A DNA stretch of 64,000 nt, from positions 205,372 through 269,371 of the forward strand of contig CAVOGK010000012.1 of assembly GCA_963695395.1 (NCBI GenBank). The letters are read 5' to 3'. A program made the position numbers and the translations under genes. The notes under the pieces were generated by a model. That model ran no database searches, had not been told where the DNA came from, and worked only from the letters and a program-made list of their open reading frames with translations. The stretch is from an uncultured Thermoleophilia bacterium (GTDB lineage: Bacteria; Actinomycetota; Thermoleophilia; UBA2241). Shown piece by piece: positions 13,447 through 38,537 of this stretch. Position 1 is the stretch's first letter, and every line of letters begins with the position of its first letter.

Positions 13447-13523
<77 letters not shown>

Positions 13524-19851: not shown

Positions 19852-21255
19852 TCAGCAGAGGATGTCGCGCTTGCCGGCGCGCACCTGGGCGAGCATCTTC
19901 TCGGTGTGGGCGCGGCGGACGGGGTCCATCTCCGCGATCTTCTGCTCGATCAACGGCTCTCCGATGGCCCGGGTCTCCGCGGAGCCGTAGTCGAGCAGAT
20001 ACTCCTCGAAGGTGCTGAGCGCGTTGGGGTCGCAGTGGTGCTTGATGTCGCCCGGCTTGGCGAGGTCCATGAAGTCCATGCCGGTGCGGCCGAGGCGGTA
20101 GCAGGCCGTGCAGAAGCTGGGCACGTAGCCGAGTTCGGCGACGTCGCGGATGACCTCGTCGAGCGAGCGGTGGTCGCCGAGCTGGAACTGCGCCGCGTCG
20201 AACTCCTCATCCTCCTCGTAGCCGCCGGGGTTGGTGCGGCTGCCGGCGGAGATCTGGCTGACGCCGAGCGCGAACGTCTCGCGGCGCAGGTTGGCTGTCT
20301 CACGGGTGCTCATGATCATGCCCGTGTACGGCACCGCGAGGCGCAGGATGGCGACGATCTTGCGGAAGTCGACGTCGCTCACCGGCAGCGGCGGTTCGCT
20401 CGCCATGTCCGAGCCGCTGGCCGGCTCCAGGCGCGGCATGCTGATCGTGTGCGGCCCGACGCCGTAGGCGCGTTCGAGCTCACGGATGTGCTGCAGCATG
20501 GCGAGGATCTCGAAGCGCCAGTCGGCGAGGCCGAAGAGGACGCCGATGCCGACGTCGTCGATGCCGGCCTCCATGGCGCGGTGCATGCCGGTGACGCGCC
20601 AGTCGAAGTCCCGCTTCTTGCCGCCGACGTGCACGGTCCTGTAGGTCTCGCGGTGGTACGTCTCCTGGAAGAGCTGGAAGGTACCGATCCCGCTCGCCTT
20701 GAGGGCGCGGAAGTCGGGCACGCTCAGCGGGGCCACGTTCACATTGACGCGGCGGATCTCTCCGTTGCCGCGTTTGACGTCGTAGATGGTCGCGATGCTG
20801 TCGAGCACGTACTGAAAGCCGCCGTCCCTGGGATACGACTCGCCGGCGACCAGCAGGATGCGCTTGTGTCCCTGGTCGACCAGAGCTTCCACCTCGCGGC
20901 GGATCTCGTCCTGGGTGAGGGCGCGCCGTTTGAGCTCCTTGTTCTTCACGCGGAAGGCGCAGTAGAGACAGTCGTTGTTGCAGAGGTTGCTGATGTAGAG
21001 CGGGGCGAAGAGCACGAGGCGCGCGCCGTAGATGGCCTCCTTGGCCTCGCGCGCCGTCTCGAAGAGCTCCGCCAGCAGCTCGGGGTCGCTCACCGAGGTG
21101 AGGACCGCGACCTCGTCCATCTCGAGTCCGTCGAGCTCGCTCGCCTTGGCGAGGATCTCGCGTACCCGCGCGGCGTCTTTGGTGGACGCCGAGTGCATCG
21201 CCTCGTCGATCGCGGCCTCGTCGATGAACGCACCTGTCTCAGCCACGGCGGTCAT
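19852..21255 (-). CDS. hydG: [FeFe]-hydrogenase H-cluster radical SAM maturase HydG
   Basis: CNNDCLYCAF radical-SAM motif, ThiH-like body, C-terminal accessory-cluster Cys motif FCTACYR...HHCDPN. Confidence 0.95.
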   Translation of the reverse strand: MTAVAETGAFIDEAAIDEAMHSASTKDAARVREILAKASELDGLEMDEVAVLTSVSDPELLAELFETAREAKEAIYGARLVLFAPLYISNLCNNDCLYCAFRVKNKELKRRALTQDEIRREVEALVDQGHKRILLVAGESYPRDGGFQYVLDSIATIYDVKRGNGEIRRVNVNVAPLSVPDFRALKASGIGTFQLFQETYHRETYRTVHVGGKKRDFDWRVTGMHRAMEAGIDDVGIGVLFGLADWRFEILAMLQHIRELERAYGVGPHTISMPRLEPASGSDMASEPPLPVSDVDFRKIVAILRLAVPYTGMIMSTRETANLRRETFALGVSQISAGSRTNPGGYEEDEEFDAAQFQLGDHRSLDEVIRDVAELGYVPSFCTACYRLGRTGMDFMDLAKPGDIKHHCDPNALSTFEEYLLDYGSAETRAIGEPLIEQKIAEMDPVRRAHTEKMLAQVRAGKRDILC

Positions 21256-22550
21256 GCATCACTCTCCGAGTCGACGACTGGCGGCTTGGCGCACTCCGCA
21301 CCAGCCGGGATCTCAAAGCTGAACTCCGCCCACTGCCCCTGCTCCGACTCCGCGGTGATGCGGCCCTTGTGCAACTGGACGATGCGCCACGAGTTGTAGA
21401 GGCCGACGCCCGTGCCGCGGAGGCTCTTGAAGGCCGGGTCGTCCAGGCGCGAGAACCTGCGGAAGAGCTTGTTCTGCTGCCCGTGGCTGAAGCCCGGCCC
21501 CGAGTTCCACACGCTGATGCGGAGGCGCTCGCCGCTCTTCTCGTCCACGGTGACCTCCGCCTTCACGCGGATGTCGCCGCCCTCGTTGCCGTACTTGATC
21601 GCGTTGTCGAGGAGGTTGACCGTGACGACGCGAAGCAGCGTCGGGTCGCAGCACACCAGCGGCAGGTCCGGGGAGGGCATGCAGATCATGAGGTGGATGC
21701 CGTGGGCGTCCGCCTGGGGGCGGACGAGATCGACGGCCTCCGCCACCACTTCCTCCATCACGTCCACGCGCGAGCGGGGGGCGAGCCTGAGCTCGCCGCC
21801 CTCCACACGCGCGAGGTCGAGGTACTCACGCACGAGGCTGAGGAGGTACTGCCCTTTGCGCTCCATGCTCAGGACCTTGGCACGCTGCTCTGGCGTGAGA
21901 TCGCCGAGGTAGCCCTGCGAGAGGATCCGGGCGTCGGTGACCATGGAGGCGACCGGACTCTGCAGTTCGTGGCTCACGAACCCGAGCATCTGCGTGTAGG
22001 CGTAGTTGGCCTCCTCGAGCTGCTCGATGCGCCAGGCCTTCTCGACCGCCTGGCTGAGGCGCTCGCTGATCGCCATCTGCAGTTCGATGTGGTTGGGCCC
22101 GTACGTGTACGGCGTGCGCGAGCTGCGGAAGATGAAGCCGACGACGCGACCCTCGACGATGAGCGGGCACGTGAGGCTGGAGCGCACGCCTTCCCTGATC
22201 AGCAGCTTGGACGAGCGGCTGCGCGGGTGGTCGTGCGCGTACGCCTCGAGATCGTTGATGATGCGCGGCAGCCCGCTGTGCATCACGTCCGTCAGCGTGC
22301 TGCCTCGCAGGCCCTCGCGGTACCCCTGGTCGATGCGCAGAGGCTCGTAGGAGGCGCGGTTGTAGTAGCTGGTGACGTAGACGGATTGCTCGTCGACGAA
22401 GGCGAGGCCCATGCGATCGCAGGGGATCAGTTCCTGCGTGTTTTCGAAGAGGTAGTCGACGATGGCGCGGAGTGAGGGACGAGCGGCGATCTTCTGATTG
22501 ACCGTGCGCAGCAACGTTCTCGCCTCGGGCGCCGATGGGCTTGAGGGCAC
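21252..22550 (-). CDS. Cytoplasmic GAF-domain sensor histidine kinase, translationally coupled to hydG
   Basis: GAF-like N-terminus, H-box FVSHELQSPV, HATPase N/G boxes (NLLDNAIKYG, GTGVGL). Its stop overlaps the hydG ATG (ATGA at 21252-21255). No TM segments seen. Confidence 0.85.
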   Translation of the reverse strand: MPSSPSAPEARTLLRTVNQKIAARPSLRAIVDYLFENTQELIPCDRMGLAFVDEQSVYVTSYYNRASYEPLRIDQGYREGLRGSTLTDVMHSGLPRIINDLEAYAHDHPRSRSSKLLIREGVRSSLTCPLIVEGRVVGFIFRSSRTPYTYGPNHIELQMAISERLSQAVEKAWRIEQLEEANYAYTQMLGFVSHELQSPVASMVTDARILSQGYLGDLTPEQRAKVLSMERKGQYLLSLVREYLDLARVEGGELRLAPRSRVDVMEEVVAEAVDLVRPQADAHGIHLMICMPSPDLPLVCCDPTLLRVVTVNLLDNAIKYGNEGGDIRVKAEVTVDEKSGERLRISVWNSGPGFSHGQQNKLFRRFSRLDDPAFKSLRGTGVGLYNSWRIVQLHKGRITAESEQGQWAEFSFEIPAGAECAKPPVVDSESDA

Positions 22551-22858: not shown

Positions 22859-24787
22859 TTACTCCTGTGGGACGTGCTTGCCGCGAGCCGTGTACTCCGT
22901 GTGCAGGAGCTTGTGGCTCTTGTGGCCGCAGGGGCCCTCAGTGAGGAACTCGGCGTACGTCTGCAGCACCGCCGGGTTCTCGTGTGACTTGCGCACCGCG
23001 TAGGCGCTGTCTTCCGAGTAGATGGCCTTCGCGCGGGCGGCGCGGATATCGGCGCTGGTCGGGATCGGCTGACCGCCGCCGCCCAGGCACCCGCCCGGAC
23101 AGGCCATGAATTCGATGAAGTGGCATTCGCTGAACTTGCCGCCGGCCTTGATGTCGTCCATGACCTTCTTGGCGTTGGCGGTGCCGTGGGCAACGGCGAC
23201 CTTGAGCGTCGCGCCGTTCAGCCAGTCCCAGTTCGGCACGAGGTGCGCCACGATCTCGGGCACCGGGCCGACCTTGGGGATGGTGAGCTCGGCGTACTTG
23301 ACGCCCTCGAAGCCGCGCAGGGGGATGATGTCGCCGTGGTCGTAGATGCTCTCGACCTTCTCGCCCGTGACCATCTCGATGACCGTGCGCAGCGCGGCCT
23401 CCATGACGCCGCCGGTGGCGCCGAAGATGACGCCGGAGCCGGTGGCCGACCCGAACGGGTCGTCGAAGTCGCTCTTGGGCAGGCTCGGCACGTGCAAGCC
23501 GGCCTCCTTGAACATCTTGCCGAGCTCACGTGTGGTGAGGCCGTAGTCGACGTCCTGGAAGCCCGAATCGTGCATCTCCGGCCGGTTGCACTCGAACTTC
23601 TTGGCCGAGCAGGGCATGAGGGCGACGCTGACGATGTTCTCGGGGTCGAGATCGAGCTTGTCTGCGTAGTACGTCTTGATGAGCGCGCCGAACATCTGCT
23701 GCGGGCTCTTGGCGCTCGAGGCGTTGGGCAGGTACTCGGGGTAGAAGTGTTCGAGGTACTTGACCCAGCCCGGCGAGCAGCTGGTGAACTGCGGCAGGGC
23801 GATGCTCTCGTCCTTCTCCACGAGGGCCTTGTACAGGCGCAGGATGAGCTCGGTGCCTTCCTCGATGATGGTGAGGTCGGCGGTGAAGTTGGTGTCGAAC
23901 ACCCTGTCGAAGCCCGCGCGGCGGAGCGCCGTGTTCATCTCGAAGGTGACCGGCGTGCCGGGTTCGAGGTCGAACAACTCGCCCATCGCCGAACGCGGCG
24001 CCGGGGCGGTCTGGATCACGACGTGCTTGTCGGGATCGTCGATCGCGGCCCACACGGCGTCGGTCTCGTCCTTGGCGTACAGGGCGCCGACCGGGCAGCG
24101 GTTGACGCACTGGCCGCAGTTGATGCAGACCGCGGAGCCGAGAGGCATGTCCTCGAAGGTCTCGATGGTGACCTTGTTGCTGCGGCCCACGGCCTCGAGC
24201 ACGCCGACTTCCTGGATGTCGATGCAGGTGCGGATGCAGCGGCGGCAGCGGATGCACTTGTTCATGTCGCGCATGACGGAGTAGCTCGAGGTGTCGGTCT
24301 CGAACAGTGGCTCGCTCGGGTGCCCGAAGGCGAACTCGGTGACGCCGTACTCCTCGGCCAGCGACTGCAGCTCGCAGTTGCCGTTGCGCACGCAGCTGTA
24401 GCACTCGCCGCAGTGCTCGCTGAGCAGCAGCTCGAGCACGTGCTTGCGGGCCATGCGGACCTTACGGTTGTGCGTGCTGATCTTCTGCTGGTTGACGACC
24501 GGGAACGTGCAGGCGGGCTGCAACGTCCGCTGGCCCTCGACTTCGACCACGCACATGCGGCACACGCCGGCCACATCGAGGTCGGGGTGGTCGCACAGCG
24601 TCGGGATCTTGATCCCGGCGGTCTTGGCGGCCTGGAGGATGGTCGTACCGAAGGGGACCTTGGTCTCGATGCCGTCGATCTCGATGCTCACCTGGGCGCC
24701 GATGGCGTCCGGGCTGGTGGTGGTGATGACGCGTCGGTGCTGCTGCGAGAGCGGCGCGCGATGGATCGGGGTGGTGGGATTGCTCAT
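22859..24787 (-). CDS. hydA: [FeFe]-hydrogenase catalytic subunit, M3-type (2Fe-2S + His-ligated 4Fe-4S + 2x4Fe-4S + H-domain), copy 1
   Basis: N-terminal Fe-S motifs (CDHP..CRMC, HCGECYSC..C, CIRCRRCIRTC, CINCGQCVNRCP). H-cluster motifs FTSCSPGW, MPCSAKKFE, EFMACPGGCLGGGGQP. ATG at 24787 follows a GAGGGAG RBS. Confidence 0.95.
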   Translation of the reverse strand: MSNPTTPIHRAPLSQQHRRVITTTSPDAIGAQVSIEIDGIETKVPFGTTILQAAKTAGIKIPTLCDHPDLDVAGVCRMCVVEVEGQRTLQPACTFPVVNQQKISTHNRKVRMARKHVLELLLSEHCGECYSCVRNGNCELQSLAEEYGVTEFAFGHPSEPLFETDTSSYSVMRDMNKCIRCRRCIRTCIDIQEVGVLEAVGRSNKVTIETFEDMPLGSAVCINCGQCVNRCPVGALYAKDETDAVWAAIDDPDKHVVIQTAPAPRSAMGELFDLEPGTPVTFEMNTALRRAGFDRVFDTNFTADLTIIEEGTELILRLYKALVEKDESIALPQFTSCSPGWVKYLEHFYPEYLPNASSAKSPQQMFGALIKTYYADKLDLDPENIVSVALMPCSAKKFECNRPEMHDSGFQDVDYGLTTRELGKMFKEAGLHVPSLPKSDFDDPFGSATGSGVIFGATGGVMEAALRTVIEMVTGEKVESIYDHGDIIPLRGFEGVKYAELTIPKVGPVPEIVAHLVPNWDWLNGATLKVAVAHGTANAKKVMDDIKAGGKFSECHFIEFMACPGGCLGGGGQPIPTSADIRAARAKAIYSEDSAYAVRKSHENPAVLQTYAEFLTEGPCGHKSHKLLHTEYTARGKHVPQE

Positions 24788-24806
24788 GGTCACTCCCTCG
24801 CTCTCG

Positions 24807-26003
24807 TCAGGCGCTCGGTGCGCGGTTGCTGATCTCGTCCTCGAAGCCCTCGAGGATGGAGAGGAATGCGCTGGGGCTCGTCTGCCCCAGGCCACACTTG
24901 GAGGCGACCGTCATCGTCTCGGCCAGAGCCTTGACGTCCGCCAGGAACTTGGGCGGGCATTCGCCCTTCTGGAGGAGCTGGACGGCCTGCAACATCTGCG
25001 GGTTGCCGAGGCGGCAGGGCGTGCACTGGCCGCAGCTCTCTTCGACGAAGAACTCGAGGAAGTTCTCGGCAACGTCGAGGATGTCGCGCTCGGGACCGAT
25101 GACCATCACGGAGCCGCCGGTCGGGATGCCTTCGAAGGCAAGCGCGCGGCTGAACTCCTTGGCCGGCACGCAGATGCCGCTGGCGCCGCCGATCTGGACG
25201 GCCTTGGCGCCCTGTCCGCCGACCTCCTCGAGCAGGTCGGCGACGGTGATGCCCCACGGGAACTCGTACACGCCGGGCTTCTCGCAGTCGCCGCTGATGC
25301 TGAAGAGCTTGTAGCCTGTCGACTTGTCGGTGCCGAACTCCTTGAACCAGTCTGTGCCCTTGGCGAAGATCGCCGCCACGGAGGCGAGCGTCTCGACGTT
25401 GTTGACGACGGTCGGGTTGTTCAGGAGGCCGGCGACCACCGGGAACGGCGGGCGGTTGCGCGGCTCGCCGCGGAAGCCCTCGAGGCTCTCGATGAGGGCC
25501 GTCTCCTCGCCGCACACGTACGCGCCGGCGCCCATGGCGGTGATGACGTCGAACTCGAAGCCTTCGACGCCCCCGACGCTGTGACCGAGCAGGCCCTGGC
25601 CGCGTCGCCTCTGGATGACCTCGTTGAGGTGCGGGCGCAGGTACGTGTACTCGGCGCGCAGGTAGATGATGCCGAGCGTCGCGCCGATCGCACGTCCGCC
25701 GATCGTCATGCCCTCGATGACGAGGTCGGCGAACCTGGTGAGGATGACGCGGTCCTTGAAGGTACCGGGTTCGCCCTCGTCGGCGTTGCAGATGATGTAC
25801 TTCTGGTCGGCCTTCTCCGCCGCGCAGAAGCCCCACTTCATGCCGGTGGGGAAGCCTGCGCCGCCGCGTCCTCTGATGTCGCTGTCGCGAACGAAGTCGA
25901 CGAGGTCGGCGCGGCTCATGGCCAGCGCGGCCTTGAGGCCGGCGTCGGCCTCGATGGTCTCGTAGGTGAGGGCGTTGCCCTGGGTCTCGATCATCGCGGG
26001 CAC
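24807..26003 (-). CDS. hydB: NuoF-like flavoprotein subunit (FMN/NADH, one 4Fe-4S), minimal 398-aa form
   Basis: GRGGAGFPTGMKW, NADEGEPGTFKDR, ESCGQCTPCR, CGLGQTS. GTG start follows GGAGGG. No N-terminal 2Fe-2S domain and no C-terminal ferredoxin domain. Confidence 0.9.
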   Translation of the reverse strand: MPAMIETQGNALTYETIEADAGLKAALAMSRADLVDFVRDSDIRGRGGAGFPTGMKWGFCAAEKADQKYIICNADEGEPGTFKDRVILTRFADLVIEGMTIGGRAIGATLGIIYLRAEYTYLRPHLNEVIQRRRGQGLLGHSVGGVEGFEFDVITAMGAGAYVCGEETALIESLEGFRGEPRNRPPFPVVAGLLNNPTVVNNVETLASVAAIFAKGTDWFKEFGTDKSTGYKLFSISGDCEKPGVYEFPWGITVADLLEEVGGQGAKAVQIGGASGICVPAKEFSRALAFEGIPTGGSVMVIGPERDILDVAENFLEFFVEESCGQCTPCRLGNPQMLQAVQLLQKGECPPKFLADVKALAETMTVASKCGLGQTSPSAFLSILEGFEDEISNRAPSA

Positions 26004-26006
26004 CGG

Positions 26007-26505
26007 TCAGCCCTCCTGGGTCGCAGCGGCGGACCCGGCAGGCGGCGACGATCTCGCGCGCCGTCTCCGGGGTGACCCGCGTGTGGACCTCGTCGTTCAC
26101 GAGCAGGGCGGGGCCCTGATCGCACATGCCGACGCAGCTCGCCCACTCGAGGGTGAAGAGCCCGTCGCTCGTGGTCTCGTCGAAGCCGACGCCGAGCTCG
26201 TCGGTGAGGGCCTCAGCGACGGCTTCCTTGCCGGCGAAGTCGCACGCGAGGGTGCCGCAGAGCCGGATCACGAACTGCCCCTCGGGGGCGCCGTGCAGGA
26301 AGGCGTAGAAGGAAGCGACGCTGTAGACCTCCACCGGGTGGATGTCGAGCGCGTCGGCGATGGTCTGCATGGATTCGGAGTCGACCTCGTGGAAGCGCCG
26401 CTTGACGTCTGCGAGGATCGGGATGAGAGAGCTTCTGCCCGGGCCGAGCTTCTCGACCAGGGCGGTGAGGTCGGCGCGGAGTTGATCTTGCTGGGTCGCT
26501 GGCAT
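26007..26505 (-). pseudogene. hydC: NuoE-like 2Fe-2S subunit (HydC-type) whose reading frame lacks a stop; net +1 frameshift near 26026-26034
   Basis: MPATQQDQ... with CGTLAC and CVGMC 2Fe-2S motifs. The frame runs on without a stop through all of hydB to 24790. Shifting one nt near GTCCGCCGCTGC gives ...AATQEG*, with TGA at 26007-26009 two codons before the hydB GTG. Start to that stop is 499 nt (3n+1). Confidence 0.75.
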
Positions 26506-26518: not shown

Positions 26519-26893
26519 TCACTGCTCGAGGAGCTTCTTGACCTTGGCCACCAGGGTCTGTGGCTCAACGGGCTTGGGCTGGAACTCGTCGACGGGGACG
26601 ATCTCACCGTCCTTGTCGATGTTGAGGCCCATCGCGGCATTGACGCTGGTGAGCATGATGATCGGCACGTCGTTGCCGATCTTGCGGATCTCACGCGCCA
26701 TGCGGAGGCCGTCGTCAGGCTCCTCCATCATGACGTCGAGGATGAGCAGGTCAGGCTTGAGCTCCTCGAGCTTCTTCATCCCGTCGGCGCGATTCGACGC
26801 GCCCTCGACCTCGTAGCCCTCACGCTCGAGGACCAGGCGGCCGGCATCGACGATGTCCGGGTCGTCGTCAACGATGAGAATCTTGGGCACCAC
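26519..26893 (-). CDS. Stand-alone response-regulator receiver (CheY-like), first gene of hydrogenase operon 1
   Basis: ILIVDDD, phospho-acceptor LILDVMM, MLTS, PKP. 124 aa with no output domain. AAGGAG RBS and GTG start. Confidence 0.85.
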   Translation of the reverse strand: MVPKILIVDDDPDIVDAGRLVLEREGYEVEGASNRADGMKKLEELKPDLLILDVMMEEPDDGLRMAREIRKIGNDVPIIMLTSVNAAMGLNIDKDGEIVPVDEFQPKPVEPQTLVAKVKKLLEQ

Positions 26894-27112
26894 GCACTCC
26901 TTCGCTCGTTTCCGTTCCCCTTGGCGTCACCGGGTGGCGCGCCATCGCGGCCTTCCGAGGTCGTCCTTCGCCCGCGAAGCACGAGCTCGCGACAGGCGCG
27001 GGCACGGCGAGGATGGGCGAAAGAGACGATGATCGGTGCTGGCCGCTCACTCCACAGGATCCACGTTCCACTTGGCCTCAGCTGCACTGCAGTTCTAACG
27101 CATCGCGGCCGC

Positions 27113-27130
27113 TTGTGCAAGGGGTCACGA
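27113..27130. promoter_or_regulatory. Weak Rex-operator-like site (TTGTGCAAGGGGTCACGA) in the 330-nt region upstream of operon 1
   Basis: Two mismatches to the TTGTGAA-N4-TTCACAA consensus. On the minus strand it lies just downstream of a possible TTCACT-17-GATACT promoter. Confidence 0.25.
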
Positions 27131-27223
27131 GCGTCAGGGGTTAGTATCGCACATCTTCGCACACGAGTGAAGCCACCCCCTGGACGGGCCGGTCCGGCTG
27201 CGCGGAGAGGCGCGGCGGGCGCC

Positions 27224-28450
27224 CTAGAGCTGAGGCGCCGCCAGGCTCGCGGCATCGACCGCGGGCCCGGACTCAGGCGTGGATCCGGCCGGCGGCGCGT
27301 CGTGGAGGGTCACCGTGAACGTGCTGCCGACGCCGGGCTCGCTCCGCACCTGCGCCTCGCCGTCGTACATGTTGGCGATCTTGCGCACGGTGCTGAGGCC
27401 GAGCCCGCTGCCGAGGATCTTCACCGTCTGTTCGTTCTTGATCCGTTGGAACTCGTTGAAGAGCTTGCCGGCCTCCTCGGGCGTGAGGCCGATGCCGGTG
27501 TCGGCGACGGCGATGGTGACGGCGTCTCCCTTGCGGCTCAGCCGCACGGTGACGGAGCCGCCGTCGCGGTTGTACTTGACGGCGTTGGAGATGAGGTTGT
27601 TGAGGACGATCTCGGCCTCGCCGGGGTCGGCCAGGAGCTCGACGTCGTCGCCGTCCTCGAGCGTCACGGTGATGTCGCGGCGCCCGGCGTCGACGGCGAA
27701 CAGCTCCATCGACGCCTTGGCCAGCTCGCGCAGGTCGACCCTCGTGATCACCCGCTCGCGCTGGCCGGACTCGATGCGCGTGAGGTCGAGCAGGTCCATG
27801 ATCAGCTTCTTCATGCCGTCGACGCGCACGATGCTGCGCTCGACCATCTGCAGGTTCTGGTCGGCCTCGGTCGTGCGCAGGATGTTGAGGTAGCCCTCCA
27901 CCGCGTTGAGCGGCGCCTTGAGCTCGTGCGCGAGCACCGAGATGAAATTGAAGCGGATCTCGCGCTTCTCCTCGGCGAGCTTGCGCGCCTGCTTGCTGAG
28001 GATCAGCTGGCTGGTCGCCTTGCGCAGCGCGTACCGGAGCTCCTCGGGCGTGAACGGCTTGGCGAGGAAGTCGTAGGCCCCGAGCTTGGTCGCCTTGACC
28101 GCCGTCTCGAAGGTCGCATAGGCGGTGATCATGATGGTCAGCACCTCGCGCCCCTGGGAGCTCAAGGCGTCGAGGACGTCCATGCCACCGACGCCCGGCA
28201 GCTTCAGGTCGAGCAGCAGCAGATCGACCGACCCGCCCTCGCCGAGGTAGTCGAGGAAGTCCTCTCCGGTCGTGAAGTAGCGGAACGCGTAGTCGGCGTC
28301 GACGAGGACGTCGCGCACGTGCACACGGTACTTCTGGATGATGCGGCGCACGCCGAGGCAGAGCGCCTCCTCGTCGTCGACCATGACGACCTGCAGCGTG
28401 GCCTGCTGCGGGTCCATGAGGCTCTCGCGGATTGTCGGTTCGACGTTCAT
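27224..28450 (-). CDS. Hybrid receiver-histidine kinase (N-terminal REC, then HisKA + HATPase)
   Basis: REC (VVMVDDE, LLLLDLKLPG, ITAY, AKP) followed by H-box LAHELKAPLNAV and N/G boxes (NLISNAVKYN, GSGLGLS). Confidence 0.85.
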   Translation of the reverse strand: MNVEPTIRESLMDPQQATLQVVMVDDEEALCLGVRRIIQKYRVHVRDVLVDADYAFRYFTTGEDFLDYLGEGGSVDLLLLDLKLPGVGGMDVLDALSSQGREVLTIMITAYATFETAVKATKLGAYDFLAKPFTPEELRYALRKATSQLILSKQARKLAEEKREIRFNFISVLAHELKAPLNAVEGYLNILRTTEADQNLQMVERSIVRVDGMKKLIMDLLDLTRIESGQRERVITRVDLRELAKASMELFAVDAGRRDITVTLEDGDDVELLADPGEAEIVLNNLISNAVKYNRDGGSVTVRLSRKGDAVTIAVADTGIGLTPEEAGKLFNEFQRIKNEQTVKILGSGLGLSTVRKIANMYDGEAQVRSEPGVGSTFTVTLHDAPPAGSTPESGPAVDAASLAAPQL

Positions 28451-28453
28451 CGC

Positions 28454-30508
28454 TCAGCTCCCGGTGATCACCTGCAGGCTCGCCGCAACGTCCGTGGCGG
28501 ACTCGAGTCGCGGCAAGGAGATGGTGAACGTCGTCCCCGTGGGGCCGGCCTCGGGGTCGGCGTTCGACTCCACGGTGATCCGGCCGCGGTGCATCTTGAC
28601 GATGCCGTGCGTGACCGCAAGGCCGAGGCCCGTGCCCTTGCCGACCTGCTTGGTCGTGAAGAACGGGCTGAACAGCTTGTCGAGGTTCTCCTTGGGGATG
28701 CCGGTGCCCTCGTCCTCTACCGCGATCACGACGTCGTCCTCGGTCCCGTCGAGCGTGACGGTGATCGCGCCGCCGTCGGGCATCGCGTGCTGGGCGTTGG
28801 TGAGCAGGTTGGTGAGCACCTGGACGATCTGATCGCCGTCGAGCTCGGCGACCGGGTCTTCGAGGTGGCCGGCCACTTCGACGGAGATGCCCTCGGCGAC
28901 GGGGATCGTGCGCATGACCTCGGCCACCAGGTCGTTGAGGTCGGTCGGCTGACGCACCACGCGGCTCTGGCGGGCGAAGTTGAGCAGGCCGGAGATGATC
29001 TTCTTGCAGCGGTTGGCCTGGTCGACGATGAGTTTGACGTCGGCGGAGACGGCGGGGTCGCTCTCGCAGTCCTCGAGCAGCAGGTTGGCGTGCAGCAGGA
29101 GGATGCCGAGCGGGTTGTTGACCTCGTGGGCGATGCCGGCGGCGAGCTGGCCCATGCTGGCGAGCTTCTCGCTCTTGACCAGCGCCTCCTTGGTCGTCTC
29201 CAGCGAACGGTGCGACTCCTGGAGCTCGTCGACGGTCTTGTGCAGCTCGTCCACCGAGTAGGGCAGGCACATCTCGACCTCGGCCAGGCCCTGCCAGATC
29301 GCGACCGCGTGGTGGCTGCAGGAGTCGTAGCCGCAGGCGCCGCAGTCGAGCTCGTCCTCGGGGGCGTACTTGTTCATACGCGCCAGGATCTCCTGGATCT
29401 GCTCCGGCGTCGGCATGTCGTCGAAGCGCTGGTCGAAGGGAGCGAAGGTCCTTGACAGATCGACGTCGCGGGCGTCCGCGACCGCCGTCTCCCAGGCCGC
29501 CTGGTCGAAGTCGGCCTGGCGGGCGCGGGTCTCGGCGCTGACGTCCGCGCGGCGCTTGAAGACCGGTTCCTCACAGCTGAAGCCGGCGCCCATGATGCAG
29601 CCTTCGCAGCAGAGGATATCGAGCAGGCGCGCCTCGGTATCGCCGTGCTCGAAGTCGGTGATCGCATCCACGAGGTTGGCGCGTCCGTCGGCGCTCACGA
29701 TGTCGCCGCTGAGGAGGTCCTCGTCCAGTTCGGCGGCCTGGAGGAGGCCACGGCTGATGGGGAAGAGGGCCCCGAGGCTGCCGCGCGGCGGGTCGAAGTC
29801 ATCACCCGTGCCGTCGTGCGTGCTGAGGCTCACCCCGCGGCCGGCGAGCAGGGTGCGAAGCTCCACATAGGTGAGCGCGGCGTGCACCTCGTCCTCGAAC
29901 TGCTCGTAGCGCGCCTCGCCCTTCTTGGCGATGCACGGCCCGATGAAGACGATCTTGCACTCGGGGCCGTACTTGTGATGCAGCACGCGCGCGATCGCCA
30001 GCATCGGCGAGACGATGGGCGCCAGGTTGTCGAGGATGTCCGGGTGGTACTTGCGCACGTAGCTGACCACCGCCGGGCAGCTGGTGGCGATGTAGCGCCC
30101 GTCGTCCTGTTCGAGCAGGCGGGCGTACTCGGCGGCCACGAGGTCGGCGCCGAAGCTGACCTCGTGGACGCTCGCGAACCCGAGCTCGCGGAGGGCGCCG
30201 ACCAGTCCGGCCGTGCCGCACTCCGTGAACTCGGCCGGATAGCTCGGCGCCACGATCGCCGCGACCGGCGCGTCGCCGGCGAGCAGGTCCTCGGTGGCCT
30301 CGATGCCGCTGAGCACCTGCTTGGCGTTCTGGCTGCAGACGGTGACGCAGTTGCCGCACCCGATGCAGCGCGTCTGGATGACGCTGGCCTGCCCATCGAG
30401 GATCTGGATGGCCTTGGCGGGGCATTCACGGACGCACGTGTAGCACCGCCGGCACTTCTCGCGGATCGTGGTGACGAGTTGCAGGTTCGGCACGCGGTCT
30501 TCGTTCAT
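28454..30508 (-). CDS. Sensory-type [FeFe]-hydrogenase-like protein fused to a histidine kinase (2x4Fe-4S ferredoxin + H-domain + Cx2Cx4Cx16C + HisKA/HATPase)
   Basis: CRRCYTCVRECP, CIGCGNCVTVCS. Diverged H-domain motifs ATSCPAVV, GPCIAKKGE, LCCEGCIMGAG. Then DCGACGYDSC...C, H-box GIAHEVNNPL and a complete HATPase. ATG at 30508 preferred (the ORF opens at 30580). Confidence 0.85.
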   Translation of the reverse strand: MNEDRVPNLQLVTTIREKCRRCYTCVRECPAKAIQILDGQASVIQTRCIGCGNCVTVCSQNAKQVLSGIEATEDLLAGDAPVAAIVAPSYPAEFTECGTAGLVGALRELGFASVHEVSFGADLVAAEYARLLEQDDGRYIATSCPAVVSYVRKYHPDILDNLAPIVSPMLAIARVLHHKYGPECKIVFIGPCIAKKGEARYEQFEDEVHAALTYVELRTLLAGRGVSLSTHDGTGDDFDPPRGSLGALFPISRGLLQAAELDEDLLSGDIVSADGRANLVDAITDFEHGDTEARLLDILCCEGCIMGAGFSCEEPVFKRRADVSAETRARQADFDQAAWETAVADARDVDLSRTFAPFDQRFDDMPTPEQIQEILARMNKYAPEDELDCGACGYDSCSHHAVAIWQGLAEVEMCLPYSVDELHKTVDELQESHRSLETTKEALVKSEKLASMGQLAAGIAHEVNNPLGILLLHANLLLEDCESDPAVSADVKLIVDQANRCKKIISGLLNFARQSRVVRQPTDLNDLVAEVMRTIPVAEGISVEVAGHLEDPVAELDGDQIVQVLTNLLTNAQHAMPDGGAITVTLDGTEDDVVIAVEDEGTGIPKENLDKLFSPFFTTKQVGKGTGLGLAVTHGIVKMHRGRITVESNADPEAGPTGTTFTISLPRLESATDVAASLQVITGS

Positions 30509-30530
30509 CGGGTCGCCGTCCGGGCGGCGG

Positions 30531-30935
30531 TCACGCGGCGCCGAGGAGCTCGGCGATCTTTGCCAGAAGCGTCTGCGCATCGATGGGCTTGTCGAAGTAG
30601 GCGTCCACGTTCATCTTGGCGAGGTCGTCGGCGGAGTCGGGCTGGAAGTTCAACCCGAGGGCGCTGCTCACCGACGTGCTGATGATGATCGGCACCTCGG
30701 CCGTGCGCGGGTCCTCCTTCAGCTGGGCGGAGAAGGCGAAGCCGGCGTCGATGCTCGTCATCATCAGGTCGGTGATGACCAGGTCCGGAGTCTCGGCGTC
30801 GATGCGCGCGAGCGCCTCGGTGGGGTTGGTGGCGGTGACCACGCGGTGGCCGGCCCCCTCGAGGATGATGCGGTTGATCTCGAGGAAGTCGAAGTCGTCG
30901 TCGACGATGAGTATCAGTGCCTGATCCGCGCTCAT
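30531..30935 (-). CDS. Stand-alone response-regulator receiver, paralogue of 26519-26893
   Basis: LIVDDD, VITDLMM, ISTS, DKP. 134 aa with no output domain. Confidence 0.85.
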   Translation of the reverse strand: MSADQALILIVDDDFDFLEINRIILEGAGHRVVTATNPTEALARIDAETPDLVITDLMMTSIDAGFAFSAQLKEDPRTAEVPIIISTSVSSALGLNFQPDSADDLAKMNVDAYFDKPIDAQTLLAKIAELLGAA

Positions 30936-31065: not shown

Positions 31066-32838
31066 TCAGACGCGGTCGAGCTCGATGTAGTGGGTGTGCA
31101 GGAGGTGATGCGAGATCTCGCCGCACGGCGCCCCGAGGTACTCCTCGTACAGGGCGCAGACGGCCGGGTTCTCGTGCGACTTGCGCAGCTCGCGACCCTC
31201 GTCCTCGCGGTAGATCGCCGCGATGCGCTTCTTGCGCACCTCGTTGGTCGTGAAGCGCGGCTGCCCGCCGCCGCCGATGCAGCCGCCGGGGCAGGTCATG
31301 ACCTCGACGAAGTGGTACTCGGCCTCGCCGCTCTTGACCTGGTCGATGACCTTCTGGGCGTTGCCGAGGCCGTGGGCCACGGCGACCTTGAGGTCGGCGC
31401 CCTCGAGGAAGGCCCAGTCGCCCTTCGCTCCCTCGACCTTGACGGACGCCACCTTCACGCCGTCGAGGCCCTCGATGGGCTCGACGTGCAGGTTGGGGAA
31501 GGGGAACGGCGTCTCGGTGACGATCTCCCAGGCCGTGCGCAGGGCCGCCTCCATGACGCCGCCGGTGTTGGCGAAGATGTCGGCGGCGCCGGTGCTGATG
31601 CCCAGCGGCGCGTCCATCTGCTCGTCGGGCAGGCTGCGAAAGTCGATGCCGGCCTGCTTGATGAGCGCGCCGAGCTCGCGCGTGGTGAGCACGATGTCGA
31701 CGTCCTGCACGCCGCTGTCGTTCATCTCCGGGCGCGCGGCCTCGTACTTCTTGGCCGTGCAGGGCATGACCGAGACGACGACCATGTCCTCCGGCTTCAC
31801 GCCGATCTTCTCGGCGTAGTACGTCTTGGCGATCGCCCCGAACATCTGCTGCGGGCTCTTGCAGGTGCTCAGGTTGTCGAGCATGTCGGGGTTGAAGTGC
31901 TCCATGTAGTTGATCCAGCCCGGGGAGCAGCTGGAGAACTGTGGCAGCGCGACCTGCTCGCCGTCCACGAGTGCCTTCTTGAGGCGCACGAGCAGCTCCG
32001 TGCCTTCCTCCATGATCGTGAGGTCGGCGGTGAAGTCGGTGTCGAAGACGGCGTCGAAGCCGAGGCGGCGGAGCGCGGCGACCATCTTGCCGGTCACCAG
32101 GGTGCCGGCCGGGTAGTCGAAGCACTCGCCGAGCGCGGCGCGGATCGCCGGCGCGGTCTGCACGATGACCGTCTTGGTGGGATCCTCGAGCGCCGCCCAG
32201 ACCTCGTCGATCTGGTTGCGCTCGCTGATGGCGCCCACCGGGCACACGGCGGCGCACTGGCCGCACTGCACGCAGACGACGTCGCTCAGGTTCTGCGAGA
32301 AGGCGGGGCCGATGAGGGTGGCGAAGCCGCGGCCCTGGGCGAACAGGCCGCCGACCCCCTGGACCTCGTTGCACACGGTCACGCAGCGGCGGCAGGAGAT
32401 GCACTTGCCGGTGTCACGGATGAGCGCCGGGGTGCTGTCGTCGAGCATCCTGACGGTCTTCTCGCCCTCGTAGCGCAGGTCGCCGATACCGAGCTCGTCG
32501 GCGAGGGTCCGGAGCTCGCAGTCCGCGGACCGGGCGCAGATCTTGCAGTCGCCGTCGTGCTCCGACAGGAGCAGCTCGACGACCATCTGGCGGCCGTCGC
32601 GGACCTTGCCGCTGTTGGTCTTGACGACCATGCCGTCGGTCGCCGGCTGGCTGCACGAGGCGACCAGCGTGCGTGCGCCCTCCACCTCGACGAGGCAGAC
32701 GCGGCAGGCGCCGATGGACTGGACGTCGTCGAGGTGGCAGAGGGTGGGGATCTTCACGCCGGCCTGGCGGGCCGCCTGAAGCACCGTGGCGCCCTCCGGC
32801 ACCTCGACGCTGATGTCGTCAATAGTCAGGGTTGGCAT
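31066..32838 (-). CDS. hydA: [FeFe]-hydrogenase catalytic subunit, M3-type, copy 2
   Basis: Same domain order as copy 1. H-cluster motifs FSSCSPGW, MPCTAKKYE, EVMTCPGGCIGGGGQP. ATG at 32838 follows an AAGGAGAG RBS. Confidence 0.95.
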   Translation of the reverse strand: MPTLTIDDISVEVPEGATVLQAARQAGVKIPTLCHLDDVQSIGACRVCLVEVEGARTLVASCSQPATDGMVVKTNSGKVRDGRQMVVELLLSEHDGDCKICARSADCELRTLADELGIGDLRYEGEKTVRMLDDSTPALIRDTGKCISCRRCVTVCNEVQGVGGLFAQGRGFATLIGPAFSQNLSDVVCVQCGQCAAVCPVGAISERNQIDEVWAALEDPTKTVIVQTAPAIRAALGECFDYPAGTLVTGKMVAALRRLGFDAVFDTDFTADLTIMEEGTELLVRLKKALVDGEQVALPQFSSCSPGWINYMEHFNPDMLDNLSTCKSPQQMFGAIAKTYYAEKIGVKPEDMVVVSVMPCTAKKYEAARPEMNDSGVQDVDIVLTTRELGALIKQAGIDFRSLPDEQMDAPLGISTGAADIFANTGGVMEAALRTAWEIVTETPFPFPNLHVEPIEGLDGVKVASVKVEGAKGDWAFLEGADLKVAVAHGLGNAQKVIDQVKSGEAEYHFVEVMTCPGGCIGGGGQPRFTTNEVRKKRIAAIYREDEGRELRKSHENPAVCALYEEYLGAPCGEISHHLLHTHYIELDRV

Positions 32839-32855
32839 CCTCTTGCTCTCCTTGC

Positions 32856-35800
32856 TCACGAGCCGTACTTGCCGTAGTCGCAACGCAGGCAGCGCCTCGC
32901 CTCAGCGACGGCCACCTTTGCGGCCCAGCCCAGCTCGACCTCGTCGAAGTTGGTGACGCGGGCACCCACGGCCAGCTCCTCGACCTGGTGACGATCGACC
33001 AGTTCGGGGTCGGCGTCGGGGTCGAAGAACGTGGGCGGCTCGATGTCGCGGCGCCAGAACGCGTGATTGGCGCCGGTGAGGAGCTCGTCCATGCCGGCGG
33101 CTGCCTTCTCGCCGGCGCCGATGGCCTCGACCACCGACGACGGGCCGGTGGCGGCGTCGCCGCCGGTGAAGACCCAGTCGACCGAGGTCTGGCCGGTGTT
33201 CGGGTCGGCGGCGAGGTAGCCCCAGCGGTTGAGCTCGACGGGGGTGCCGTCCAGGACGGCCGGCGCGTCGAGCTTCTGCCCGATCGCGGCGATGACGGTG
33301 TCGGCCTCGACCACGAAGTCGGGGTTGTGGCCGGCGACCGGACGGCGACGGCCGCTGCGGTCGTAGTCGCCCAGCGCCATCTCCTTGCAGCGCACGCCGG
33401 TGACGTTGCCGCTCGCGTCGCGGAGGATCTCCTCCGGGGCGACGAGCGTCATGATGTCGATGCCCTCGAGGTCGGCGGCGTCGATCTCCTCGCCCCACGC
33501 CGGCATCTGCGCCCGGGTGCGACGGTAGAGGATCTTGACGCTCTCGGCGCCGAGGCGCAGGGCGGTGCGGGCGGCGTCGATGGCCGCGTTGCCGCCGCCG
33601 ATCACGGCGACGTTCTTGCCGACTTCGCCGGTGCCGTGCACGTTGTACTGCTTGAGGAACGACAGGCCGTCGTACACGCCGGGGCCCTCCTCACCGGGGA
33701 TGCCGATGCCCATGCCGGCGGGGGCGCCGACGCCGACGAACACGGCCTCGTATCCCTCGTCCTTGAGGCTCTTGAGGGTGAAGTCGCGGCCGAGCGCCTT
33801 GCCGTACTCGAAGCGGGCGCCCATGGCCTCGATCATCTCGATCTCGCGCTCGAGCTCGGGGCGCGGCAGGCGGTAGGCCGGGATGGCCTGGACGAGCATG
33901 CCGCCGGCCTTGGGTTCAGCCTCGAACACGACCGGCTTGTAGCCCAGCCGGGCGAGGAAGTAGGCGGCGGAGAGGCCGGCGGGACCGGAGCCGACGACGG
34001 CCACCTTGCGGGCCGCGTTCTCGGCGTTCTCCAGGATCTCCGGCAGCTGCGCGTCCTTCTCCTGCTCCACCATGAAGCGCTTGACGTGGCGGATCGCGAG
34101 CGACCCGTCCAGGCTCGAGCGCATGCACTTGCTCTCGCAGGGGTGGAAGCAGACGCGGGCGCAGATGCTGGCCAGCGGGTTGCGCTCGCGGTGCAGCTTG
34201 AGGGCGTCGTCGTAGCGCTCCTCGCCCACGAGGCTCACGAAGCCGGGGATGTTGACGCTGGCCGGGCACGCGTTGGAGCAGCGCGCCTTGAACATCGCCC
34301 CGCATACGCCAGCTTCGCAGTACTTGTCCTTGATGTGGGCCTCGTACTCGTGACGGAAGTGACGGATCGTCGAGAGCACGGGGTTGGCGGCCGTCTGGCC
34401 GAGGCCGCAGAGCGCGGTCTGGCTGATCGACTCGCCGAGGGCGACGAGGCGCTCGATGTCGCCCTCTTCGCCCTCACCGTTGCAGATGCGCTCGACGATC
34501 TCGAGCATCCGCTTGGTGCCGACGCGGCACGGCGGGCACTTGCCGCAGCTCTCTTCCTGGGTGAACTCGAGGAAGAAGCGTGCGATGTCGACCATGCACG
34601 TGTCCTCGTCCATGACGATGACGCCGCCGGAGCCCATGATCGCGCCGAGCTCCTGCAGGGTGTCGTAGTCGACGGGCACGTTGAGGTGCTCCTTGGGGAT
34701 GCAGCCGCCGGACGGCCCGCCGAGCTGCGCGGCCTTGTAGGCCTTGTCGCCCGGGATGCCGCCGCCGACCTCGTAGATGAGCTCGCCGAGCTGCATGCCG
34801 ATCGGGACCTCGACGAGGCCGGTGTGCTGCACGTTGCCGCCGAGCGCGAACACCTTGGTGCCCTTGCTGCTCTCGGTGCCGGTGCTGGCGTACCACTCCG
34901 CGCCCTTGAGGACGATCGGCGCGATGTTGGCGAAGGTCTCCACGTTGTTGAGCACGCTGGGCTTGCCCCAGAGGCCCGAGACCGCCGGGAACGGCGGGCG
35001 CGGACGCGGCTCGCCGCGGTGCCCCTCGATCGAGGTCATGAGCGCGGTCTCCTCGCCGCAGACGAAGGCGCCCGAGCCCATGCGGATCTCGAGGTCGAAG
35101 TCGAAGCCACTGCCCATGATGTCGTTGCCGAGCAGGCCGTACTCGCGCGCCTGCCCGAGAGCGTGCTCGAGGCGCTCGACGGCGAGCGGGTACTCGGCGC
35201 GCACGTAGACGTAGCCCGTGTGCGCGCCGATCGCGAAGGCGCCGATGACCATGCCCTCGATGAGCGAGTGCGGGTCGCCCTCGAGCACCGAGCGGTCCAT
35301 GAACGCGCCGGGGTCGCCCTCGTCCGCGTTGCAGAGGATGTACTTGACGTCGTTGTCCTGCTGCTGGGCGAAGCGCCACTTCATGCCCGGTGGGGAAGCC
35401 GGCGCCGCCGCGGCCGCGCAGGCCGCTGGCCAGGACCTCTTCGACGACCTGCTCGGGGGTCATCTCGGTGAGCACCTTGGCGAGGGCCTGGTAGCCGTCG
35501 CGGGCGATGTACTCGTCGATGTTGAGCGGGTCGATGATGCCGGAGTTGCGCAGCACGATCTTGACCTGGCGGTTGAAGAACGGGATGTCGTTCATCTCTG
35601 CCTGGGACTTCTCGGTGCCGGGCGCGTGGCTCACGAGACGCTCGACCACACGGCCCTTGAGGAGGTGCTCCTCGACGATCTCGGGCACGTCGTCGACCTT
35701 GATGTTCTGGTAGAAGACGCCGTCGGGGTAGACGAGCGCCACGGGGCCCTGCACGCAGGGGCCGAGGCAGCCGGTCTCGACGACCTCGATCTCGCCGGCG

Positions 35801-38186: not shown

Positions 38187-38537
38187 GCACGGCTCCCTTT
38201 CACCCCGAGGGCGTACAGGCGGCCGACGATGTCGAAGGTGTCCGCCGGAGACGAGTAGAGCGAGAGCCCCTCGGCGGCGGCTTTCGCGAGCACGTCGTCC
38301 TCGGGCATGCGGTTCGCCGGCGAAGACCACGGCCGCGAGTTCCGCGTGGCTGGCGACGGCGATCACGTTGAGGTGCACCTGCAGGGTGACGAGCAGGCCG
38401 CCCTCGGGCGCGTGCGCGAGCACGTCGCTGAGCAGATCCGACGCGTAGCCGCGGTCGACCTCGGCGTCGCGGCTGCCGGACACGTCCGGCGTGAGCTCGG
38501 TGAATCCGAGCTTGCTGGCGATATCGTCGAGCTTCAT
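38183..38537 (-). pseudogene. DRTGG-domain protein with a net +1 frameshift at about 38313-38321
   Basis: MKLDDIASKLGFTEL...LLVTLQVHLNVIAVASHAELAAVVFAG, then in the next frame NRMPEDDVLAKAAAEGLSLYSSPADTFDIVGRLYALGVKGSRA*. Its stop overlaps the PHP GTG (GTGA). 355 nt (3n+1). Confidence 0.7.

Follow-up and report, generated by a model that had tools for sequence, protein, structure and literature searches.

A putative H2-sensing kinase and receiver module between two [FeFe]-hydrogenase operons of an uncultured Thermoleophilia bacterium

How sensory [FeFe]-hydrogenases transduce their signal is a question posed in earlier work (PMC8163306). The putative sensory enzymes of the M2e and M2f types are characterized by an N-terminus with two [4Fe-4S] clusters, a hydrogenase domain (H-domain) devoid of an equivalent of the cysteine C299 and a Cx2Cx4Cx16C motif (PMC8163306). 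Two such proteins, TmHydS and TamHydS, bind the H-cluster and react with H2 (PMC8163306, PMC10055695). Group C1 has been described as linked to a histidine kinase (HK; PMC6163223), and HK-fused relatives have been assigned to group C3 (PMC11406978). BfuT is the HK-fused sensor of the sub-type V BfuABC clusters of Hydrogenedentota, Calditrichota and Bacteroidota, a cluster type that has been described in Hydrogenedentota, in Caldithrix abyssi and in three cultured Bacteroidota (PMC11406978). Response regulators are nowhere mentioned in that paper (0 occurrences, PMC11406978). Here, we describe a 64,000-nucleotide stretch of an uncultured soil actinobacterium of the class Thermoleophilia (GenBank assembly GCA_963695395.1, contig CAVOGK010000012.1, positions 205,372 to 269,371; hereafter the window), in which a sensory hydrogenase fused to a kinase (HydS-HK), a hybrid of a receiver domain (REC) and a kinase (REC-HK) and two stand-alone receivers (REC1 and REC2) are encoded between two hydrogenase operons.

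What the sequences show directly is which parts make up the module, how far they are conserved, that their catalytic and acceptor residues are intact and that Rex-type sites lie nearby. We infer that H2 is the signal, that phosphoryl groups pass in a particular order and that the target is not DNA. We assign a probability of about 0.5 to the whole chain, in which HydS-HK senses H2 and signals via REC-HK to single-domain receivers with a protein target, while Rex sets transcription. The more general statement that this is an H2- or redox-sensing two-component module dedicated to hydrogenases is held with greater confidence.

Organization and conservation of the module

The G+C content of the window is approximately 69%, so that mechanical lists of open reading frames (ORFs) are crowded, and genes were called from a frame plot of third-position G+C together with Pfam. 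By these means one long minus-strand cluster was delineated that spans Rex to HydE. The module and the hydrogenases that flank HydS-HK, HydA2 upstream and HydA1 downstream, are arranged as follows in the order of transcription.

31066–32883, minus strand: HydA2, catalytic [FeFe]-hydrogenase subunit (Fe_hyd_lg_C, E 6.1e-97, with Fe_hyd_SSU, Fer2_4 and NADH-G_4Fe-4S_3)
30531–30935, minus strand: REC1, 134 residues (Pfam Response_reg, E 5.8e-18)
28454–30508, minus strand: HydS-HK, 684 residues (Fer4, Fe_hyd_lg_C with E 7.8e-43, Fe–S motif PF04060, HisKA and HATPase_c)
27224–28450, minus strand: REC-HK hybrid (Pfam Response_reg, HisKA and HATPase_c)
26894–27223, minus strand: non-coding gap of 330 nt (no coding signal in the frame plot)
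26519–26893, minus strand: REC2, 124 residues (Pfam Response_reg, E 1.7e-21)
26005–26505, minus strand: NuoE1 (Pfam 2Fe-2S_thioredx)
24807–26003, minus strand: NuoF1 (Pfam Complex1_51K and NADH_4Fe-4S)
22859–24790, minus strand: HydA1 (Pfam Fe_hyd_lg_C, E 9.2e-83)
21252–22550 as called, with a probable ATG start at 22623, minus strand: GAF-HK (Pfam GAF, HisKA and HATPase_c)

HydA2 belongs to the upstream operon NuoE-Fd-NuoF/GltD-HydA2, and REC2 is the first cistron of REC2-NuoE-NuoF-HydA1. NuoE1, NuoF1 and HydA1 are predicted from their sequences to form a trimeric HydABC-type [FeFe]-hydrogenase. The intergenic distances are 130 nt between HydA2 and REC1, 22 nt between REC1 and HydS-HK, 3 nt between HydS-HK and REC-HK, 330 nt between REC-HK and REC2 and 13 nt between REC2 and NuoE1; the gene order, the coordinates and the last four of these distances had been given in an initial annotation of the stretch and were exact on recheck. 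The stop codon of GAF-HK overlaps the start of hydG by 4 nt.

The succession of a receiver, an H-domain kinase and a REC-HK, to which the initial annotation had drawn attention, recurs in relatives. The loci were scanned with one genome per species, giving 56 loci with a full sensory-domain match, and three Bacteroidales metagenome-assembled genomes (MAGs) were among the scan matches. REC1 lies directly upstream of HydS-HK in 45 of the 52 assessable loci and REC-HK directly downstream in 49 of 53. For REC2, which comes next, the count is at least 43 of 51, several of the misses being frameshift-ridden long-read contigs. Wherever a source is named for a close homologue of HydS-HK, it is a Thermoleophilia MAG; L003, the nearest species genome, shows 99% protein identity. 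The called genes of two more distant relatives, L001 (79% identity) and L002 (64%), follow the same order from Rex through the aspartase-like gene.

The triad of HydS-HK, a stand-alone REC and REC-HK, placed directly after NuoE-NuoF-HydA, is recurrent in about 55 species genomes of Thermoleophilia and in four other phyla. The order is NuoE-NuoF-HydA-HydS-HK-REC-REC-HK-Rex in the three Bacteroidales MAGs, NuoE-NuoF-HydA-HydS-HK-REC-REC/PAS-HK-HydG-HydE in a Calditrichia MAG (L083), Rex-NuoE-NuoF/GltD-HydA-REC-HydS-HK-REC-HK-HydE-HydG in a Phycisphaerae MAG and Rex-NuoE-NuoF-HydA-HydS-HK-REC-REC-HK on a Hydrogenedentota contig (L085). REC2, hydrogenase 1 and GAF-HK were seen in Thermoleophilia-type loci only among the loci of the five phyla compared, and against the gene order of the other phyla they have the appearance of an insert placed between REC-HK and hydG. 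A variant locus from one Thermoleophilia MAG (L024, positions 10001–15000) carries HydS-HK, REC-HK, REC2 (90 nt after REC-HK), a NuoE-like gene and GAF-HK, without Rex, REC1 and both hydrogenases, and is adjoined by aminotransferase and rhomboid genes of the kind that flank the cluster in the window. Unless this locus is an assembly artefact, the signalling module evidently persists there without hydrogenase genes in cis.

No gene that joins a receiver to a helix-turn-helix (HTH) domain was found by Pfam anywhere in the 64-kb window, nor, in the six loci from four phyla for which genes had been called, within 7–10 kb of the module. The Bacteroidales locus, for which an ORF listing alone was used, likewise shows no adjacent DNA-binding response regulator.

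The sensor kinase, the hybrid kinase and the receivers

HydS-HK comprises, in order, two [4Fe-4S] motifs (Fer4 families, residues 15–62), the H-domain, a Cx2Cx4Cx16C motif (PF04060, residues 387–416), HisKA and HATPase_c. When it is aligned to HydA of the bifurcating hydrogenase 8a6t, the cluster cysteines are seen to be kept in TSC144P, GPC192IAKK.E and C301-x-G-C304, while the first cysteine of TSCCP, the proton relay C299 of CpI, is absent ('iats.cpavv' versus 'mftscCPSWi'). The P3 motif is Cx2C, not Cx3C. Across 56 homologues from several phyla there is no variation at C144, C192, C301, C304, C389, C392, C397, C414 or H461, nor at the residues near the cluster cysteines (PC..KK.E). By every sequence criterion tested HydS-HK is a member of the group C sensory [FeFe]-hydrogenases; the initial annotation had named the H-domain and left its identity with this sensory module implicit. 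Because the H-domain is the group C module, the input of HydS-HK is probably H2 or the redox state of the H-cluster.

The sensory part alone was searched against 1.84 billion cluster representatives, and 963 clusters fell below an E value of 1e-30. Among the 70 nearest full-length relatives, HisKA and HATPase_c are present in 37–39, PAS in approximately 13, a sigma54-activator domain in 13 and HTH_8 in 10. This repeated joining to a kinase, PAS or sigma54-activator domain indicates that the sensory domain is a signalling input domain. The sigma54 AAA+ fusions would themselves be one-component H2-responsive enhancer-binding proteins. In the AlphaFold (AF2) model of HydS-HK (predicted local distance difference test score, pLDDT, 86) a single helix of residues 415–480 starts right after C414 and carries H461. 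This continuity suggests that the state of the C-terminal cluster might be transmitted mechanically to the dimerization and histidine phosphotransfer (DHp) domain.

REC1 and REC2 are paralogues with 38% identity over 124 residues (E 1.5e-20), and pairwise comparison gave no significant similarity of either to the receiver of REC-HK. The phospho-acceptor residues reported as intact in the initial annotation are so: none of D12, D13, D57, T87 and K109 (CheY numbering) varies among the 16 receivers aligned, which include Escherichia coli CheY and members of four other phyla. An insert before the conserved lysine, also reported at the outset, is present in both and lies between T87 and K109; measured against CheY and the REC-HK receiver, it adds seven residues in REC1 and three in REC2. 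The seven-residue insert occurs in REC1-type proteins of all of the phyla aligned and has the motif TSV..A.G[LM].F. The AlphaFold (AF2) model of REC1 (pLDDT 87) has a normal (beta-alpha)5 fold in which alpha4 is broken by the insert. A Foldseek search with this model returned generic receivers only (RpaA, VicR, RR468 and DivK), and the insert therefore points to no known partner.

Response_reg is the sole Pfam domain in all 120 of the 120 listed homologues of REC1, which are 75–99% identical to it and 133–150 residues long, nearly all of them 133–138; only Thermoleophilia orthologues with at least 75% identity were among the matches listed. Compared with solved structures, REC1 and REC2 are closest to receivers of the WalR, PhoP, PleD and RR468 types. 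The JGI label 'CheY-like' on REC1 homologues reflects only their single-domain architecture, and no che or flagellar gene was detected by Pfam among the ORFs of the 64-kb window.

Both HydS-HK (AHEVNNPL) and REC-HK (AHELKAPL) possess all of the H, N, G1 and G2 boxes. In GAF-HK the H and N boxes are present, and the G1 box is atypical (NSGPG, not DxGxG). The three kinase cores show 26–33% identity in pairwise comparison, with no clear duplication pair. The transmitter of HydS-HK finds its best match in the PDB in ZraS (1e-34), the next match being at 1.6e-25, and proteins of the HydS-HK type carry the JGI label 'NtrC family sensor kinase'. ZraS is a kinase of the NtrB group. The best PDB matches of the REC-HK receiver are the NtrC1, NtrC-family and LuxO receivers, and those of the REC-HK and GAF-HK transmitters are HK853 and VicK.

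On the strength of these class-level matches of transmitters and receivers to solved structures, phosphotransfer would run from HydS-HK to the receiver of REC-HK, then through the REC-HK kinase to a stand-alone receiver, and the three proteins plausibly form one pathway. The initial annotation had proposed a multi-step phosphorelay. No Hpt or Spo0B-like domain was found by Pfam in any ORF of the 64-kb window, the only PF10090 match falling on the HATPase region of HydS-HK, and since the ATP-binding boxes of both kinases are complete, the parts do not make up a classical His-Asp-His-Asp relay; the family matches suggest a kinase cascade, which fits better.

Rex, the intergenic leader and the remainder of the cluster

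Further features of the cluster and of its presumptive transcriptional control are listed below.

40106–41170, minus strand: Rex, at the head of the cluster (Pfam Put_DNA-bind_N, PF06971, 1e-13, and CoA_binding, PF02629, 2.1e-16)
41203–41220, strand unassigned: candidate Rex-type operator CTGTGAATCCTGTCACAA, two mismatches, just upstream of rex
27113–27130, strand unassigned: candidate Rex-type operator TCGTGACCCCTTGCACAA (as read on the minus strand), three mismatches, inside the 330-nt gap
38534–40099, minus strand: protein with HATPase_c_2, 4Fe-4S, a partial Fe_hyd_lg_C and an FeS motif (Pfam)
36937–37503, minus strand: HATPase_c protein (Pfam)

In L001 and L002, too, Rex is found at the head of the cluster. 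The whole window was searched with TTGTGAA-N4-TTCACAA, after the Rex operator consensus (PMC2883068), allowing up to three mismatches, and three Rex-type sites were found against 0.23 expected; the pattern with a 6-nt spacer gave no matches in the window, in contrast to that with the 4-nt spacer. The site upstream of rex abuts a promoter-like TTGACA-18-CAGAAT at 41249–41220. In the Phycisphaerae and Hydrogenedentota loci rex is likewise immediately preceded by canonical Rex-type sites with one to three mismatches, and sites of this kind are also seen before rex in a Bacteroidales locus. Control of hydrogenase and hydG genes by Rex has been documented in Caldicellulosiruptor (PMC6391272). The statement in the initial annotation that there is no HTH output anywhere in the cluster holds for REC-HTH regulators and has to be corrected otherwise, because Rex, a protein of a DNA-binding class, heads the cluster, and predicted operators in front of both hydrogenase operons are plausible.

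The site in the gap reads TCGTGAC-nnn-TTGCACAA on the coding strand. Both half-sites are kept, with a variable spacer, in 27 of the 47 intergenic regions scanned and lie 228–245 nt upstream of the REC2 start (284 in one locus), and a more distant clade has a different and better Rex-like site, TTGTGAAACAATCCGCAA, at about -135. The leader of approximately 230 nt upstream of REC2 (26894–27160, minus strand) is conserved in more than 20 Thermoleophilia species. Its conserved blocks, found in 15–23 loci, are TGCGATACT (a candidate extended -10 element), the Rex-like box, GATGCGTTAGAA and GCTGAGGCC...GTGGATCCTGTGGAGTGAGCGGCC. By eye, a hairpin of variable sequence appears to lie just before the ribosome-binding site. 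The gap has no Rfam family (the only match, at E 7.9, is meaningless) and contains no terminator-like site. A structured RNA is not claimed: RNAalifold on 23 leaders gave -6.5 kcal/mol with one covarying pair. An ORF at 26776–27255 was rejected as a gene because it has no Pfam match and no coding signal.

The Thermoleophilia Rex has 355 residues against the usual number of approximately 210, the extra residues forming a C-terminal extension of approximately 150 residues (40106–40573) with a sub-threshold but full-length match to DRTGG (E 0.0064). The extension is homologous (33%) to a small ORF at approximately 38300–38540, between the HATPase_c_2/Fe-hydrogenase-like gene and the PHP gene. The Rex-DRTGG fusion may thereby link redox repression to the function of accessory genes.

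The full order of transcription is Rex, the HATPase_c_2/4Fe-4S/degenerate Fe-hydrogenase-like/FeS protein, the small DRTGG-like ORF, a PHP protein, the HATPase_c protein, NuoE, a small 2Fe-2S protein, NuoF fused to a GltD-like domain, HydA2, REC1, HydS-HK, REC-HK, the 330-nt gap, REC2, NuoE1, NuoF1, HydA1, GAF-HK, HydG, a TM1266-like protein, an aspartase-like protein, HydF and HydE. HydG, the TM1266-like and the aspartase-like proteins have Pfam support, and HydF and HydE were read from translations only. The two HATPase-type proteins listed above (36937–37503 and 38534–40099) are thus further members of the cluster. In the protein at 38534–40099 an anti-sigma-type HATPase_c_2 is fused to 4Fe-4S, a partial Fe_hyd_lg_C and an FeS motif, so that the cluster encodes two different putative sensory hydrogenase-like proteins, this one and HydS-HK. 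HydA1, HydA2 and all Thermoleophilia copies (88 copies in related loci) have the P1 motif TSCSPGW instead of the canonical TSCCPxW, and a serine at that position is common among group A3 enzymes (PMC11406978). The window also contains the [NiFe]-hydrogenase maturation genes hypF, hypC, hypD and hypE at 1519–6499, with no [NiFe] structural gene, and four tRNA genes, three at 6585–7283 within an otherwise non-coding region (6500–7800) and a fourth at 13450–13523.

Two single-base insertions set the window apart from L003 and L004, its closest relatives. An extra C at 35385 breaks NuoF-GltD between FPTG and MKW, and an extra G in the G-run at 26034–26036 abolishes the stop codon of NuoE1, which in the relatives ends in ATQEG and a stop. 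The aminotransferase (41448–41741/41668–42768), the PHP gene (37451–37849/37776–38573) and an H+-pyrophosphatase (58591–59439/59417–60754) are also frame-split. These splits look like long-read consensus error, the alternative being real pseudogenization. In GAF-HK the conserved N-terminus MGREQQ..VTYVDPFRD (MGREQQRRHPAVTYVDPFRD, ATG at 22623) lies in another frame than the rest of the gene; the frame shifts between 22550 and 22623, and the true start is probably near 22623.

Proposed pathway and comparison with known systems

The module would be an H2- or H-cluster-redox-sensing cascade that serves the electron-bifurcating-type [FeFe]-hydrogenase operons. HydS-HK would be a group C sensory hydrogenase with a histidine-kinase transmitter in place of the usual PAS domain, and the state of its H-cluster, acting via the C-terminal [4Fe-4S] motif that caps the helix of His461, would set the balance between kinase and phosphatase. 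Its NtrB/ZraS-type transmitter would most likely phosphorylate the NtrC-type receiver of REC-HK, and the phosphorylated receiver would gate the HK853/WalK-type kinase of the same protein. REC-HK would in turn phosphorylate REC1 and, in Thermoleophilia, maybe also REC2, which is possibly served by the GAF kinase as well. The output would be a phosphorylated single-domain receiver that acts through a protein partner. Transcription of the operons, sensor genes included, would be controlled separately by Rex in response to NADH/NAD+.

Several observations weigh against this pathway. The match of the REC-HK receiver to NtrC1 (1.8e-13) is only modestly above those to generic receivers (approximately 1e-12), and similarity at the level of classes predicts partner specificity only poorly. 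No clear covariation was apparent by eye at the specificity positions of DHp helix 1 and receiver helix 1: between the two phyla compared, REC-HK has identical DHp positions, while the stand-alone receivers differ in helix 1. H-cluster motifs were hardly found in the group C1 proteins of the Hydrogenedentota study (PMC11406978), so that sensing by the wider class is not settled. The Rex-like site in the gap, with its three mismatches, overlaps TTGCAC, which may rather serve as a -35 element. The visible part of the genome is limited to 64 kb, and an orphan DNA-binding regulator may therefore be encoded elsewhere.

Of the alternatives, the one judged most probable is that Thermoleophilia possess two systems, in which REC1 works with HydS-HK and REC-HK, and REC2 works with GAF-HK, the kinase that closes the second hydrogenase operon. 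The latter pair would sense a GAF ligand, would have arrived with hydrogenase 1 and would be independent of H2 sensing. This is a possible reading, although a tentative one. It agrees with the joint insertion of REC2, NuoE1-NuoF1-HydA1 and GAF-HK between REC-HK and hydG in comparison with Phycisphaerae and Calditrichia, and with the GAF-HK transmitter being of the same HK853 class as that of REC-HK. However, REC1 and REC2 are close paralogues that could share kinases, the G1 box of GAF-HK is atypical (NSGPG), and L024 keeps REC2 after REC-HK, together with GAF-HK, in a locus without REC1 and the hydrogenases. Since REC-HK, REC2 and GAF-HK are all retained in L024, the readings with one and with two systems are not separated there.

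The main rival to a protein target is that an unlinked DNA-binding regulator is the true substrate of HydS-HK, of REC-HK or of both, with the stand-alone receivers serving as phosphate sinks or insulators; we consider it unlikely. The restricted view of the genome leaves room for such a regulator, the HydS-HK transmitter is of the NtrB/ZraS class that normally serves NtrC-type DNA-binding activators, and the fusion of 13 of the 70 nearest sensory relatives to Sigma54_activat and HTH_8 makes transcription a common output of the domain. Against this, no REC-HTH gene is present in the window or near the module in the loci compared (7–10 kb in the six with called genes), a stand-alone REC and REC-HK being the invariant neighbours instead, and a role as phosphate sink alone leaves the constant retention of REC-HK unexplained.

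It is about equally doubtful that the hydrogenase-like domain is a sensor of Fe-S redox or ferredoxin state, or lacks the [2Fe] subcluster, and so reports redox as Rex does rather than H2. The absence of the proton-relay cysteine, the Cx2C form of P3, the published doubt about H-cluster binding in group C1 proteins (PMC11406978) and the presence of a second and more degenerate hydrogenase-like protein at 38534–40099 are in keeping with such a sensor. The four cluster-ligand cysteines and PC..KK.E are nevertheless invariant in the 56 homologues of several phyla, the relatives TmHydS and TamHydS bind the H-cluster and react with H2 (PMC8163306, PMC10055695), and the module is co-located with the HydE, HydG and HydF maturases. 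A true relay from HydS-HK via a Spo0F-like stand-alone REC and the DHp histidine of REC-HK, acting like Spo0B or ChpT, to the REC-HK receiver or REC2 is very improbable: a REC adjoins the sensor kinase in every phylum and Spo0F-type receivers are among the PDB matches, but the window has no Hpt or Spo0B-like domain, the N, G1 and G2 boxes of REC-HK are complete, unlike those of the degenerate ChpT and Spo0B, and the end point would be a receiver without an output domain of its own.

In the favoured cascade from HydS-HK through REC-HK to a receiver, the identity of the protein partner is a separate matter. That the REC proteins act on hydrogenase complexes, as suggested in the initial annotation, is pure inference, and the more specific proposal that a phosphorylated REC (REC1 in five phyla and REC2 also in Thermoleophilia) binds a protein of the hydrogenase system, either HydABC or Rex, is a long shot. 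If it were true, the H2 partial pressure would switch the activity or direction of the bifurcating hydrogenase, or relieve repression by Rex, post-translationally, and a two-component output would be directed onto a redox enzyme and not onto DNA. A receiver that acts on the enzyme complex or on Rex would constitute a new coupling of H2 partial pressure to fermentative redox balance and would offer a compact genetic H2 sensor module. The locus and its conservation in five phyla in any case supply a minimal parts list of a sensor-kinase fusion, a REC-kinase and a single-domain receiver, with a testable order of transfer. Since cultured carriers of the cluster type exist, namely Caldithrix abyssi, Tenuifilum thalassicum, Perlabentimonas gracilis and Williamwhitmania taraxaci (PMC11406978), both the pathway and what it acts on are open to experiment.

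Part of this arrangement is already known. The sensor-kinase fusion has been described (group C, 'BfuT'), and HydS-HK is a new member of a known family. With the group C and D sensory hydrogenases TmHydS (M2f) and TamHydS (M2e) it shares the two [4Fe-4S] motifs, the H-domain without C299 and the Cx2Cx4Cx16C motif. TmHydS carries a PAS domain and TamHydS no signalling domain, whereas in HydS-HK HisKA-HATPase follows straight after the Fe-S motif. Like BfuT, HydS-HK adjoins a group A3 NuoE-NuoF-HydA hydrogenase, and the homologues in L085 and L083 are in the same position. The account of BfuT (PMC11406978) does not extend to the REC and REC-HK partners, the duplicated REC2 or the GAF kinase, and no description of the triad was found in the literature searched for a sensor kinase with response regulators or receivers. 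Within that literature, the three-protein pathway without a DNA-binding domain, its cross-phylum conservation and the elaboration in Thermoleophilia (the REC2-led operon and the GAF kinase) are undescribed.

The closest functional paradigm is provided by HoxBC-HoxJ-HoxA of Cupriavidus necator and HupUV-HupT-HupR (PMC10073562), in which a hydrogenase-like H2 sensor of low turnover controls a histidine kinase, and this kinase governs the energy-converting hydrogenases. HoxBC is, however, a [NiFe] protein and a separate complex bound to its kinase, whereas HydS-HK is of the [FeFe] type and fused to the kinase. The regulator HoxA binds DNA as a sigma54-dependent activator, whereas the present module has no DNA-binding regulator encoded nearby and interposes a second kinase. 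A similar logic has been shown biochemically for Che3 of Rhodospirillum centenum, in which CheA3 phosphorylates the receiver of the REC-kinase CheS3, and CheS3 alone phosphorylates the single-domain output receiver CheY3, with no DNA-binding domain involved (PMC3868531). By analogy, only the REC-kinase hybrid would phosphorylate the stand-alone output receiver here. The first kinase of Che3 is of the CheA type and is fed by a chemoreceptor, and the process governed is cyst formation. The analogy is one of logic and not of family.

HK853-RR468 of Thermotoga maritima and WalK-WalR provide the best structure matches of the REC-HK and GAF-HK transmitters and are among the best for the stand-alone receivers. 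RR468, like REC1 and REC2, is a stand-alone receiver, while WalR has a DNA-binding domain, and HK853 and WalK are membrane-bound with other inputs. With the described Rex regulons (PMC2883068, PMC6391272) the locus shares the position of rex at the head of the cluster and, as candidates, operator-type sites before rex and before the second hydrogenase operon. It would differ from them in the predicted C-terminal DRTGG-like extension of the Thermoleophilia Rex and in the degenerate candidate site in the gap, with three mismatches.

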